Of a DNA stretch of 64,000 nt, positions 383 to 3,391 are shown in pieces. How positions within the stretch are numbered: the first letter of the stretch is position 1; the number at the start of each line of letters is the position of its first letter. The notes below the pieces were generated by a model, which was given only the letters and a program-made list of their open reading frames with translations, was not told the origin of the DNA and did no database searches. The stretch is from contig SVGS01000016.1 in NCBI GenBank assembly GCA_015056205.1, forward strand, positions 2,174-66,173, in the 5' to 3' direction. Made by a program: the position numbers and the translations under genes. The DNA comes from Clostridiales bacterium. Lineage in GTDB: Bacteria; Bacillota; Clostridia; Christensenellales; Aristaeellaceae.

Positions 383-1414
383 TTAGCAGCCGTAATCTGC
401 CGGAACAGCCAACTCAGATATTAAGAGTGTTCCGGTATCCCCGTCGATGCAGATGCTGCGCGCTTCAATCTGCTTTGGGCAGAAAGCCTCATCATAATTC
501 AGACAGCAGTAAACCGCATTCGGATTATCGTTTGTCATCTGCCAGAAGGGGTATTTGATGATCACCGGTGTGTTGCTGCCGACCCCAATCTCCAGAAACA
601 GCACGTGCTGTCCCTGATGCTGCCGGAGGTAATTGGCATAGGCAGCGGATGCCCGGTGCCAGCCTTCGTCCTCCACAAAAGAATCATCCGACCGGAGATT
701 GGGCATCACTTTGCGCTCGTCCTCCGGGCTGCGGGGGATCAATGCAGTCGGAATGCGCATGGCGACTTTCCTGCCTTCCGGCATAATAAACGAGCCGTCC
801 GTGTTCTTCACAAAGCCCTGCGCAGCCATGGCCTGCATGACCCATTCTTCGTTGTCCCAGGTCTTCTGTACAGTCGGGCGCTGGTTTTGGAAAAGGCCAT
901 AGTCGCCCTGGGTATAGAACAGGCGCTTCTTGTCAAAGCCCGCCTTCTGGAACATGTGATCCACATTGGTGGTGATCACAAAATAATCCCTGTCAGCTAC
1001 AAGCTTTAGAAGGTTCTCATAGACGGGCTTCGGCGCTTTCGCGTATCGATTGCAGTAGATATGTCTGCTCCACCAGGCCCAGTATGTCTCTTCATCCGGG
1101 AAGGGGTAGAAGCCGCCGGAATACATATCCGTAATCCCGAAGCGATCCGCAAAGTCCGAAAACCAGTACCGGAAACGTTCACCGCTGTAGACAAAGCCTG
1201 CCGAGGTGGACAATCCGGCTCCCGCGCCGATCACGACAGCGTCCGCCGTCTTCAGTTCCTTTTTTAACCGCTCAATCCGATCTGCACGGGTGCCGATGCC
1301 CAGGGACAAGCCGTCCCGGAAGCTCTGCACGCCATCCAGGCCTTGCTGAATGGTCTCCAGATAGCCGTTTGGCCGTTTATCGTAATTCCTGCTCATAGTA
1401 TTCTCTGTCCTCAT
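383..1414 (-). CDS. SIR2-family protein, class-M sirtuin (SirTM-like, putative protein ADP-ribosyltransferase)
   Basis: 343-aa ORF with NAD-binding motif GAGAGLSTSAGF and a TTNVDH motif. It has YTQGDYG where canonical sirtuins carry the catalytic His. Its start overlaps the stop of the upstream macrodomain gene. Alternative ATG at 1396. Confidence 0.85.
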   Translation of the reverse strand: MRTENTMSRNYDKRPNGYLETIQQGLDGVQSFRDGLSLGIGTRADRIERLKKELKTADAVVIGAGAGLSTSAGFVYSGERFRYWFSDFADRFGITDMYSGGFYPFPDEETYWAWWSRHIYCNRYAKAPKPVYENLLKLVADRDYFVITTNVDHMFQKAGFDKKRLFYTQGDYGLFQNQRPTVQKTWDNEEWVMQAMAAQGFVKNTDGSFIMPEGRKVAMRIPTALIPRSPEDERKVMPNLRSDDSFVEDEGWHRASAAYANYLRQHQGQHVLFLEIGVGSNTPVIIKYPFWQMTNDNPNAVYCCLNYDEAFCPKQIEARSICIDGDTGTLLISELAVPADYGC

Positions 1415-2183
1415 CCTTGAAAACGTTGAAGATCACCCGATCCACGACACCTGGATGCCTGAGCATCCAGTCTCTTACGGTTTTCACGGCAATTTCAGCC
1501 GCCCGTCGGCCCGGAAAGCGGAAGACACCTGTGGAAATGCAGCAGAAGGCCACGCTTTTCAGCCCGTTCTCCAGGCACATGTCCAGTGTGTTCGTGTAGC
1601 AGTCGGCAAGCGCCTTTTCCAGCGCCTGTGTCAGCCTGCTTTCAACGATCGGTCCGACGATATGAATCACCTTTTTTGCGGGCAGGTTATAGGCATCCGT
1701 CAGCATCGGGACAGCCGTCGGCTGCTCGTAATCCGGACCATACCGCATTCGCAGCGCTTCCATCTGCCGGTTGCAGGCGGCGCGGAGCTGGATGCCCGCA
1801 AAGGAGTGGATACAGTTGTCAATGCAGGCGTGCATAGGCACAAAGCATCCGAGCATTTGGGAGTTGGCCGCGTTCACAATGGCGTCCACTGCAAGCCTGG
1901 TGATATCGCCCTGCCAGATGGAGAGACCGTCATGCAGCACCGGAATATCGTCCGGCGTAACGATTCCTTTCTCCCTTGCGCGACCCTGCAGGTAATCATC
2001 CTGTACGCGCAGCACATTTTCCGGCATTGTGCCGGGCATGCGGATGTTCATCAGTGAGCGGAGGATGCGCTGCCTGCCGCTGGTATCTTTGGGCGTGGTC
2101 AAATTCTGATAATCGCCCGAATCTGCCTTGAAAGCCTCAACAAGGAAGTTCAGCCGCTGGTCCTGCGTCATCGTTTTGTCCAT
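1377..2183 (-). CDS. Macrodomain protein (protein-ADP-ribose hydrolase type)
   Basis: 268 aa with macrodomain motifs [12 protein letters not shown] and [11 protein letters not shown], plus an N-terminal extension of about 90 aa. The ATG lies 6 nt after the upstream stop, with AAGAGG inside the upstream gene's end. Confidence 0.9.
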   Translation of the reverse strand: [268 protein letters not shown]

Positions 2184-2189
2184 CGTACT

Positions 2190-2810
2190 TTACCTCTTTT
2201 GCACTGCCCCTGCAGGGCAGGCTGTCATACAGTTGCCGCAGTGCAGACAATGCGCCTGCTCGATGCGGAAAGGGATGCTGTCCGCGCTGATGCAATCCTG
2301 CGGACATACTTTCAGACAGCTTCCGCAGCCGATGCAGGCGTCTGTGATGATGAAGCCTTCCGTCTTCTCCTGAACGCCGCCGAAGGTGAAGGAGGCCCGC
2401 TCGATGGGTCTCTTTGAGAGATCGAACCATTCACCGGTACCCTCATAAACCTGAAAAACCGTCAGGGCGTGCATGGCTTCCTTCGTTGGATAGATCTGAT
2501 GCATGTACGGATTCTTTTCAAACAGCGCAGGGATCCGCTCATAGCCGAGCTCTCTGACTTTCCCTCGAACGGATACCGCGACGCTGGACATGGTGTCTTG
2601 CCCTTTGATCGCGGTCAGGGCCAGGAAACCGCGCTTCTTCAGCCGGTCATAAAAGCCCTTTCCCTTTGCGGTCAGGAAGTAGAGGCCGTTTTCATCGCTG
2701 TCCATCATGTCGATAGCGGCAGTGATTGGAAGGCCCTCATCATCCACCGTTGCCACGATGGTCGTATGGATTTCGCTCACGATAAAGGCCAGATAATCTT
2801 TCGCTTCCAT
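2190..2810 (-). CDS. Pyridoxamine-5'-phosphate-oxidase-like (FMN split-barrel) protein fused to a 2x[4Fe-4S] ferredoxin domain
   Basis: The C-terminus has two CxxCxxCxxxCP motifs (CIGCGSCLKVCP, CLHCGNCMTACP). The N-terminal ~150 aa look like a general-stress/PNPOx-type barrel. AAGGAG sits 6 nt before ATG 2810. The track start at 2849 is a GTG with no RBS. Confidence 0.8.
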   Translation of the reverse strand: MEAKDYLAFIVSEIHTTIVATVDDEGLPITAAIDMMDSDENGLYFLTAKGKGFYDRLKKRGFLALTAIKGQDTMSSVAVSVRGKVRELGYERIPALFEKNPYMHQIYPTKEAMHALTVFQVYEGTGEWFDLSKRPIERASFTFGGVQEKTEGFIITDACIGCGSCLKVCPQDCISADSIPFRIEQAHCLHCGNCMTACPAGAVQKR

Positions 2811-2864
2811 GTGCCGCTCCTTTGAAAGAGGCTCCGATGTCAACCGCACCGGAGCCTCCCTTGA

Positions 2865-3305
2865 TCAGTTTTCCTTTGCCAGAAGATCGTGCATGCCTTC
2901 CCGCAGATCCGCGAGGGTATACTTTTTCATTTCTTCTTCCATCGCGTTCTGGATCGCCTTCAGCTTGTCGTCCAGCAGGGCATGGATGTTCCGGCCCACC
3001 GGACATTTAGGGTTCGGCGCTTCGTGAAAGTGGAACAGGTCGCCGTTTTCCACCGGCTCGATGGCCTGATACACATCGTAGAAGCTGATCTCCTCCAGCG
3101 GCTTCGTCGGTTCGATGCCGCCCGTGCCCCGGGCTACTTTGATCAGTCCGGCGGTTTTCAGCTGCGTCAGGATCCGGCGGATGATGACGGGGTTGGTGTT
3201 GATGCTGCCCGCCAGGAAGTCGCTGGTGACCTTGTACTCGTCCTTGAAGGTTTCGACACAGGCGAAGATATGCAGCGCGATGGTAAACCGGCTTGATATC
3301 TGCAT
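2865..3305 (-). CDS. Rrf2-family transcriptional regulator
   Basis: 146 aa with an N-terminal winged helix (TSDFLAGSINTNPVIIRRILTQLKTAGLIKVARG). Only two Cys in total, so it is probably not a 3-Cys Fe-S-binding Rrf2. Confidence 0.9.
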   Translation of the reverse strand: MQISSRFTIALHIFACVETFKDEYKVTSDFLAGSINTNPVIIRRILTQLKTAGLIKVARGTGGIEPTKPLEEISFYDVYQAIEPVENGDLFHFHEAPNPKCPVGRNIHALLDDKLKAIQNAMEEEMKKYTLADLREGMHDLLAKEN

Positions 3306-3320
3306 GCGCTCACCTCCCTG

Positions 3321-3391
3321 CGTCTGCTGTCCTTATGCTGCAGACGCTTTCTTTCATGCCTATTATAGCCTTATTTGATGGGAGAAGCAAC
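3321..3391 (-). promoter_or_regulatory. Candidate promoter and inverted-repeat operator (or leader hairpin) of the Rrf2 operon
   Basis: On the minus strand: TTGCTT (3386-3391), 17-nt spacer, TATAAT (3363-3368). A perfect 8-bp inverted repeat GCGTCTGC-N12-GCAGACGC (3321-3348) sits just upstream of the RBS GGGAGGTG. Confidence 0.45.

Follow-up and report, generated by a model that had tools for sequence, protein, structure and literature searches.

In a 64,000-nt stretch of contig SVGS01000016.1 (GCA_015056205.1; hereafter the window), from a Clostridiales bacterium belonging to the rumen Clostridia, a class-M sirtuin (SirTM) and a zinc-dependent macrodomain (Zn-Macro) are encoded at the tail of a six-gene operon. 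The gene just before them encodes PNPOx-Fer4, a PNPOx-like split barrel fused to a 2x[4Fe-4S] ferredoxin domain. The window locus and more than 100 relatives show that the SirTM/Zn-Macro pair is usually independent of GcvH in gut and rumen anaerobes, and that the partner found with it most often, and most specifically, is a small PNPOx-type flavoprotein, in many cases fused to ferredoxin. Pairs of this kind lacking the lipoyl carrier GcvH-L and the ligase LplA2 were already known; what is added here is the PNPOx-Fer4 linkage, the HypR-type regulation and a zinc-less SirTM subclade. We are fairly confident that the module and its regulation are as described below. That PNPOx-Fer4 is functionally tied to the pair is a reading we lean towards, and that the co-translated PNPOx-Fer4 is itself the ADP-ribosylation client of SirTM is a tentative suggestion.

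A sirtuin and macrodomain pair without GcvH-L

Sequence searches matched the sirtuin best to Streptococcus pyogenes SirTM (PDB 5A3A, E=1.3e-51); the only other significant match was the fungal Mfs1 macro-SirTM fusion (8RSN), and a Pfam scan gave no SIR2 match. Its AlphaFold2 model (pLDDT 90) retrieved the same structure with Foldseek (5A3A, E=8e-25, TM-score 0.86), ahead of Mfs1 (8RSN, 1e-15) and of the ordinary sirtuins SIRT2 and SIRT5 (~1e-9). The motifs GAGAGLSTSAGF, TTNVDH, YTQGDYG and GVGSNTP are present. All motifs quoted in an earlier note on this DNA were found, including NAAN and GxF in the macrodomain and a Gln at the position of the canonical catalytic His; that Gln lies in YTQGDYG, which aligns with HIQGEYG of 5A3A, and equals the catalytic Gln137 of S. 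pyogenes SirTM (SpySirTM). Mono-ADP-ribosylation (MARylation) by SpySirTM needs Asn118, Gln137 and Arg192, and Asp120 and a GVGx[NT]TP motif are also conserved (PMC4518038). The equivalents of N118, D120, Q137 and R192, together with GVGx[NT]TP, do not vary in 125 relatives. Sequence, motifs and fold alike make the protein a SirTM, as the earlier note had proposed, and not a class U/III deacylase; judging from characterised homologues it would act as an NAD+-dependent mono-ADP-ribosyltransferase.

A small zinc domain with four Cys is a general feature of the sirtuin fold and does not define class M. SpySirTM and Foc1Mfs1 have all four of these Cys, whereas in the window sirtuin they are replaced by N, T, S and D. 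Such loss is widespread: 80 of the 125 relatives retain 0–1 of the Cys and form a derived clade on the tree, the other 45 having all four. Members of the zinc-less clade mostly have ~40 additional N-terminal residues, predicted to be structured.

The macrodomain scored 293.1 bits against NF003163, the protein-ADP-ribose hydrolase equivalog (cut-off 272). Its closest solved relative is MorMacro (PDB 8RSI, E=4.6e-69), matched over residues 5-265 with the N-terminal three-helix extension included; MorMacro comes from a lone-pair operon of Methanobrevibacter oralis (PMC11490716). Zn-Macros are recognised by a Cx(4)HxC zinc loop in place of the Gly-rich catalytic loop, with NAAN and Dx3H (PMC11490716), and the window protein has NAAN, a zinc loop C-FVPM-H-A-C (Cx4HxC), D-NCI-H (Dx3H) and GVF. 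It is a macrodomain of the SirTM-linked zinc type, and its characterised homologues suggest that it would be a hydrolase. A Macro gene adjoins SirTM in 26 of 27 sampled Clostridia loci.

To our knowledge, GcvH-L is the sole known SirTM substrate. The earlier note had remarked that neither GcvH-L nor LplA2 lies at the locus, and their absence extends to the whole genome (2.94 Mb, 91% complete): a profile search gave no PF01597 (GcvH) match, and there was no lipoate ligase, the single PF03099 match being BirA (HTH, BPL and BPL_C domains). Real GcvH was found in only 2 of 31 SirTM-positive Clostridia genomes, in both on another contig; the other 29 are without it. As a positive control, two small code-4 Mollicute-like genomes (loci L095 and L096) yielded the canonical order LLM>GcvH-L>SirTM>LplA2>OYE. 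Searched with the Mollicute proteins, the other 127 of 129 fetched SirTM/PNPOx-Fer4 loci contained neither GcvH-L nor LplA2. At 2 of the 16 Bacilli loci sampled, these two stand alongside SirTM. On the tree, the SirTMs encoded with GcvH-L (S. pyogenes and the two Mollicutes) group in a clade of their own (100% support), and the window SirTM falls outside it. By tblastn, neither OYE nor LLM was found in the first 12 kb of the window. Since the genome is without GcvH, the client of this pair is not GcvH-L.

The two Mollicute loci (L095, G481:C1 6655-11051; L096, G558:C1) showed no macrodomain gene by tblastn, and would thus have a writer without an eraser unless TGA codons hid the gene.

Pairs without GcvH-L and LplA2 have been described as 'independent/minimal' operons with unknown targets (Rack 2015, PMC4518038; Ariza 2024, PMC11490716), and both targets and roles of SirTM/Zn-Macro pairs outside the staphylococcal/streptococcal operon are stated to be unknown (PMC11490716). 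Like the pair in the window, the lone pairs of M. oralis (8RSI-8RSK), Enterococcus faecalis and Treponema pedis have adjacent, overlapping genes and no GcvH-L or LplA2. They differ in that the window SirTM lacks the zinc site and its pair closes a six-gene operon with PNPOx-Fer4, an Rrf2-family repressor of HypR type with its operators, and a SnoaL-like gene, all of which go unmentioned in the two studies (PMC4518038, PMC11490716). Compared with the extended operon found in S. aureus and S. pyogenes (GcvH-L, Zn-Macro, SirTM, LplA2, OYE and LLM), the retained N118, D120, Q137, R192, GVGx[NT]TP and Cx4HxC suggest the same writer and eraser chemistry, and the link to oxidative stress and the associated flavin oxidoreductases are further likenesses. 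The carrier and ligase, by contrast, are absent from the window genome, a PNPOx/2x[4Fe-4S] fusion stands instead of OYE/LLM, and the SirTM belongs to a separate clade.

PNPOx-Fer4 as companion of the pair

PNPOx-Fer4 comprises a split barrel (residues 1-140) and a ferredoxin domain (residues 153-203). The barrel scored 32.8 bits against PF01243 (PNPOx_N; cut-off 28.1). In the AlphaFold2 model (pLDDT 92) its best Foldseek matches were 2HHZ, NimA/C (2IG6) and GS26 (probability 1.0, TM-score up to 0.80), the PNPOx fold also being matched, so the model points to a PNPOx-like, putative flavin mononucleotide (FMN)-binding barrel, with FMN, F420 or haem as candidate cofactor. The N-terminal 140 residues share their fold with the small split-barrel flavoproteins of S. 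suis (2HHZ), NimA/NimC (2IG6) and general stress protein 26 (2HQ7), from which the window domain differs in being fused to a 2x[4Fe-4S] ferredoxin, an architecture found in no solved structure. Eight ferredoxin Cys (C159, 162, 165 and 169; C188, 191, 194 and 198) make up two CxxCxxCxxxCP motifs and are invariant in 18 sequences, which marks the C-terminal domain as a predicted ferredoxin of the clostridial 2x[4Fe-4S] type.

We surveyed 300 scored Clostridia genomes, one per species, for SirTM and for PNPOx-Fer4 homologues at E<=1e-15. SirTM was present in 35, PNPOx-Fer4 in 18 and both in 16 (odds ratio 111, Fisher p=4e-15). The two genes lay within 3.5 kb of each other in 15 of the double-positive genomes and were split across contig ends in the remaining one. 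The two PNPOx-Fer4 genomes without SirTM were a Fer4-only partial match and a locus of Rrf2 plus PNPOx-Fer4. The linkage to the ferredoxin fusion that the earlier note had proposed is therefore conserved in Clostridia and specific (16/18). The order PNPOx-Fer4>Macro>SirTM was seen in 27 of the 129 loci, and four further orders occur: PNPOx-Fer4>SirTM, Macro>SirTM>PNPOx-Fer4, SirTM>PNPOx-Fer4>Macro and PNPOx-Fer4>SirTM>Macro. At 21 loci the PNPOx-Fer4/Macro junction measured -16 to +12 nt. A PNPOx-type partner stood within 4 kb of SirTM at 15 of the 27 sampled Clostridia loci and 7 of the 16 Bacilli loci. Stand-alone PNPOx_N proteins (~131 aa) are encoded directly upstream of Macro-SirTM in four loci and beside the pair in several more. 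Rrf2 was found at only 2 of the 27 Clostridia SirTM loci, and the trio persists where the regulator differs; its other contexts include TIGR04340 radical-SAM plus nitroreductase genes, or NmrA-like genes. In the literature library searched, we found no link between SirTM and ferredoxin, PNPOx or Rrf2.

The TIGR04340 context, a second recurrent variant, was seen at eight loci (L100, L103, L105, L110, L111, L044, L055 and L080), where an 'ACGX system' radical SAM/SPASM gene (TIGR04340, 590 bits) is followed by a nitroreductase gene and then by one for a PNPOx-Fer4 protein (36-40% identical). They lie upstream of Macro-SirTM where these two genes occur; L044 is without Macro, and the PNPOx-Fer4 match at L080 is partial only. 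A simple search for Cys at every fourth residue revealed no ACGX-repeat peptide near the TIGR04340 genes.

Rosetta-stone fusions were sought among 150 representative homologues, and each of three candidates was set aside. P0170 (PNPOx plus partial Macro) is a deletion chimera without Fer4, NAAN or the zinc loop. P0209 (L131 105-1082) joins PNPOx, one Fer4 motif and a NUDIX domain, whose fold ADP-ribose pyrophosphatases share; coming from one metagenomic contig of 1.3 kb, with a degenerate first Fe-S motif, it may be an artefact. P0132 has a truncated NmrA-like domain fused to PNPOx-Fer4. All three are suggestive, yet as evidence they are too few or too degenerate.

Cassettes whose proteins are 60-87% identical were found in Oscillospiraceae, Lachnospiraceae, Erysipelotrichaceae (Eggerthia), Johnsonella and Pseudobutyrivibrio. 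The pair was found also in Bifidobacteriaceae, Atopobiaceae, Leptotrichia, Succinivibrio, Spirochaetales and one Thermoplasmata archaeon, mostly from rumen or gut. This distribution, spanning such distant taxa, indicates that the cassette has been transferred horizontally between phyla.

Two loci show a further feature at the 3' end of sirTM. At L108 (G015:C4 2501-8801), three extra copies of the last ~50 codons follow the intact gene at ~2-kb spacing, and at L104 (G158:C29 8001-9697) a copy truncated near residue 279 is followed by an intact one. The pattern looks like mobile elements integrating at the 3' end of sirTM and bringing a replacement end.

Operon limits and regulation

The earlier note had described four tightly coupled genes, and all four lie on the minus strand at the coordinates that it gave. 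The PNPOx-Fer4/Macro gap is exactly 6 nt (2184-2189), and SirTM overlaps Macro, whose stop codon (1377-1379) falls 20 nt into the SirTM gene; counted from the alternative ATG the figure is 38 nt. The unit, however, holds six same-strand genes and not four, running from the promoter at 4675-4703 and enclosed by two strong terminators; its features are collected in the table.

Features of the operon and its flanks (window coordinates)
Feature	Position	Strand	Evidence or remark
Intrinsic terminator of upstream DUF4143 ATPase gene	4743-4796	-	17-pair interrupted hairpin (4757-4796), then UCUUUUUUGUUUUU
Operator O1, predicted Rrf2 site, over -35 box	4693-4711	-	TGTAACTATTGACATTACA (TGTAAC-TATTGAC-ATTACA)
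Main operon promoter	4675-4703	-	TTGACA-17-TATGAT with TG extension; 11/12 consensus positions
Operator O2, in 5' leader, downstream of -10 box	4644-4662	-	TGAAACCATGATAGTTACA (TGAAAC-CATGATA-GTTACA)
Tandem SnoaL-like (NTF2-fold) protein, 256 aa, first gene of conserved cassette	3844-4614	-	Pfam SnoaL_2, two matches, E=1e-17
147-aa protein, signal-peptide-like N-terminus, putatively exported	3371-3814	-	In lineage-specific insertion (3307-3842) between SnoaL and Rrf2 genes
Candidate promoter of the earlier note, weak, no operator	3362-3390	-	TTGCTT-17-TATAAT, read from sequence
Rrf2-family repressor, HypR/YwnA/SaiR type	2865-3305	-	Pfam Rrf2, E=1.6e-30
GC-rich hairpin with short U tract, between Rrf2 stop and PNPOx-Fer4 start	2823-2860	-	Fold -25.8 kcal/mol
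PNPOx-Fer4 (PNPOx-like split barrel fused to 2x[4Fe-4S] ferredoxin)	2190-2810	-	Pfam PNPOx_N, Fer4 twice
Zn-Macro, protein-ADP-ribose hydrolase by homology	1377-2183	-	NCBIfam NF003163; PDB 8RSI match
SirTM, zinc-less subclade with N-terminal extension	383-1396	-	PDB 5A3A match; alternative ATG at 1414
Operon terminator	192-245	-	Interrupted 14-pair hairpin (203-245), then UUUUUCUU; fold z-score -2.7

Related cassettes resemble the window at the DNA level over 433-3306 and 3843-4728, and the SnoaL-like gene is 66-87% identical in seven of them (L015, L035, L046, L079, L082, L098 and L128). The 536 bp in between, with the 147-aa gene and the candidate promoter of the earlier note, are absent from all related cassettes. 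For the 147-aa protein, scans of family libraries gave no match, clustering left it a singleton, and no homologue occurred among the fetched loci. PNPOx-Fer4 starts at ATG 2810, which is preceded by AAAGGAG and is also where its homologues begin; an alternative start at GTG 2849, inside the hairpin, was rejected on the ribosome-binding site and the homologue starts.

The main promoter precedes the SnoaL-like gene, within the similarity shared by the cassettes, and its sequence is kept in eight of them. The pattern TGWAAC-N7-RTTACA has only two occurrences in the 64 kb, O1 and O2 (0 expected by chance), and adjoins module genes, or lies within a few kb of them, in 20 loci; related cassettes keep O2 in the same place. 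In S. aureus the operator of HypR reads TAATTGTAACTA-N3-CAGTTACAATTA, with the core TGTAAC-N7-GTTACA (PMC6067689). O1 and O2 equal it in core and spacing, and the core overlaps the promoter in both systems.

In relatives the same motif also forms a second promoter/operator directly before Rrf2, which the insertion has removed in this genome. A separate promoter that the earlier note had placed at 3363-3391 does exist as TTGCTT-17-TATAAT, yet its -35 box matches 3/6 bases only, it was unlisted by a consensus scan, and it sits in the lineage-specific insertion; the regulated promoter and its operators are those at 4644-4711. A perfect 8-bp inverted repeat, GCGTCTGC-N12-GCAGACGC, at 3320-3347 between this weak TATAAT box and the Rrf2 ribosome-binding site was considered as an Rrf2 operator and rejected, being within the insertion, absent from relatives and unlike the conserved operator motif. 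Perhaps it is a leftover, or forms an RNA hairpin that arrived with the inserted gene.

Cys101 of the Rrf2 protein, in NPNPxCPVGRNIH, is invariant in 27 homologues. No other Cys is (Cys16 is present in 14 of 27), and the three-Cys Fe-S cluster motif is found neither in the protein nor in the 27 aligned homologues. HypR, which controls MerA in S. aureus, YwnA, which controls YwnB in B. subtilis, and SaiR of B. anthracis are cluster-free Rrf2 repressors that respond to thiol stress (PMC6067689); they are set apart by conservation of the Cys99 equivalent only and by the missing three-Cys Fe-S motif (PMC6067689). The window protein likewise retains only the equivalent of HypR Cys99 (its Cys101). 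HypR, YwnA and SaiR control flavin or NAD(P)H reductases, and YwnB-like NmrA genes flank 13 of the related loci. Two differences stand beside these likenesses: no sensing Cys comparable to HypR Cys33 is kept among the homologues, and the regulon here includes an ADP-ribosylation pair. Because it scores far under the NCBIfam HypR equivalog cut-off (48.8 bits against 180), we describe the protein as a predicted HypR/YwnA-like one-Cys thiol sensor, not as HypR itself.

The hairpin between Rrf2 and PNPOx-Fer4 keeps pairing at 10 of its 13 pairs through two-sided (compensatory) changes in nine cassettes, with a U run after it. It is probably a leaky internal terminator or an attenuator.

At the downstream end, the terminator hairpin (203-245) lies 138 nt past the SirTM stop, with a U tract on the operon side and an A tract on the other; a simple terminator scan had overlooked it. 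The convergent gene, an open reading frame of at least 780 aa that ends at 171 (window 1-171 plus the contig upstream, L130 2-2344) and is unrelated to the operon, has a second hairpin (166-188) right at its stop codon. With tracts on both sides, the suggestion of the earlier note that the 203-245 hairpin is shared with the convergent gene is a reasonable one. At the upstream end, the terminator at 4743-4796 is predicted to insulate the operon against transcription from upstream.

Directly upstream lies a gene for an AAA_14/DUF4143 ATPase (4939-6288), of lower GC (about 46–48%). Its PADLOC match is to PDC-S01, a candidate defence family (E=3.5e-91). ATPases like it are encoded downstream of SirTM in L038, L044 and L068.

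Proposed mechanism and its rivals

We propose that the six-gene operon is inducible by thiol or oxidant stress and would be transcribed from the 4675-4703 promoter to the 192-245 terminator. Rrf2 would repress through the two TGWAAC-N7-RTTACA operators that bracket the promoter, and would release them on thiol oxidation or alkylation, as suggested by the motif, its position and the HypR precedent; stress would thus free the operators and the trio would be expressed. In this conserved core, PNPOx-Fer4 > Zn-Macro > SirTM, SirTM would mono-ADP-ribosylate a client with NAD+ and Zn-Macro would take the mark off, going by the activities of their homologues. The likeliest client, or functional partner, would be PNPOx-Fer4, and ADP-ribosylation would in that case gate low-potential electron flow that feeds a detoxifying reduction. 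Taken as a whole this is the best explanation we can offer, and we judge it rather likely. Its boldest part, that PNPOx-Fer4 is the physiological substrate of the zinc-less SirTM in a reversible switch for anaerobes under oxidant or electrophile stress, is plausible but less likely than not; PNPOx-Fer4 might be one of several clients, or else correspond in function to staphylococcal OYE/LLM.

Several findings weigh against the proposal. With the operator promoter before Rrf2 lost, and a terminator-like hairpin before PNPOx-Fer4, expression of the trio is uncertain. The earlier note had PNPOx-Fer4 taking the place of GcvH-L and LplA2; it is indeed a highly specific companion, but about half of related SirTM pairs are without it. 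SirTM-positive genomes lacking an adjacent PNPOx-Fer4 have no copy elsewhere in the genome either, and in 4 of 16 such genomes the PF01243 family is missing altogether, so PNPOx-Fer4 is not an obligate, only or universal target. Near-identical SirTMs occur with and without it (L082 vs L079, L097 and L052). A PNPOx-Fer4-specific SirTM clade was sought and not found: the trait is scattered on the SirTM tree, with 27 gains or losses and no significant clustering. At locus L126 (G163:C2 7989-9201), a genome that has neither SirTM nor Macro carries an Rrf2 gene (66% identical), two operator motifs and a gene resembling PNPOx-Fer4 (35% identical), which shows that the flavo-Fe-S protein can sit in the Rrf2 regulon alone. 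Other neighbours, encoding FMN reductase, nitroreductase, NmrA-like and zinc alcohol dehydrogenase proteins, follow a generic redox-stress-island pattern, under which PNPOx-Fer4 may match OYE/LLM rather than GcvH-L.

Several of these observations favour the strongest rival, in which PNPOx-Fer4 is a co-regulated, mechanistically independent stress oxidoreductase, a counterpart of OYE/LLM, while the pair modifies an unlinked housekeeping protein. It is in keeping with the varying flavoenzyme neighbours of SirTM pairs, with the lack of any PNPOx partner in about half of the pairs and of the whole family in some genomes, with the patchiness of PNPOx-Fer4 on the SirTM tree and with the SirTM-free genome G163; OYE and LLM of S. 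aureus, too, are associated with the operon yet unmodified (PMC4518038). What it leaves unexplained is the extreme dependence in the reverse direction, with SirTM in 16 of the 18 PNPOx-Fer4 genomes and adjacent wherever contigs permit, the tight or overlapping PNPOx-Fer4/Macro junction at 21 loci, and a linkage maintained over five gene orders and several regulatory contexts. We regard this rival as possible without favouring it.

The other three alternatives carry much less weight with us. The substrate of the pair might be something other than a protein, or NAD/ADP-ribose metabolites, with PNPOx-Fer4 handling a product or supplying a redox cofactor. Non-canonical ADP-ribosylation is known (reviewed in PMC8883491), and the NUDIX fusion P0209 would fit; against this stand the poor quality of that single contig, the invariance of all SpySirTM residues required for protein MARylation, and the cleavage of protein Glu/Asp-ADP-ribose by lone-pair Zn-Macros (PMC11490716), which together make this route improbable. 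Still less likely is a toxin-antitoxin or anti-phage module with a sirtuin toxin and macrodomain antidote, as in DarT/DarG. The overlapping writer and eraser genes, the movement of the cassette between phyla and the PDC-S01 match of the neighbouring DUF4143 ATPase could be read that way, but PADLOC defence models matched none of the six operon proteins, the operon stands under a redox-sensor operator together with flavoenzymes, and a strong terminator separates the DUF4143 gene from it. An ordinary GcvH-L-dependent system, its carrier and ligase lying at another locus or in the 9% that the assembly lacks, we practically discount. The incompleteness of the genome leaves room for it, as does a canonical GcvH elsewhere in 4 of 10 other cassette-bearing genomes; the genome, however, has neither GcvH nor LplA, real GcvH is wanting in 29 of the 31 SirTM-positive Clostridia genomes, the SirTMs of GcvH-L operons are a separate, fully supported clade, and lone-pair Zn-Macros do not demodify SpyGcvH-L (PMC11490716).

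A functional parallel to a PNPOx-Fer4 client is the DraT/DraG system, in which the nitrogenase Fe protein is reversibly mono-ADP-ribosylated by an ART-fold transferase and an ARH-fold hydrolase. Both systems would reversibly mono-ADP-ribosylate an Fe-S redox protein encoded nearby, PNPOx-Fer4 being the putative target in ours. The two systems use unrelated enzyme folds, those at this locus being a sirtuin and a macrodomain.

The trio under its HypR-type thiol-stress repressor, with a readable operator, makes up one widespread, horizontally spread cassette, and the idea could be tested directly with its three small proteins, its operator and cultured hosts, among them Eggerthia catenaformis DSM 20559 and Johnsonella ignava ATCC 51276. 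If the client idea fails, the locus is a well-annotated case of the already known lone pair. If PNPOx-Fer4 is a client, ADP-ribosylation would be tied to Fe-S/flavin redox control in anaerobes. This would answer what lone SirTM/Zn-Macro pairs modify, and the module would be a functional analogue, built from unrelated folds, of DraT/DraG and nitrogenase.

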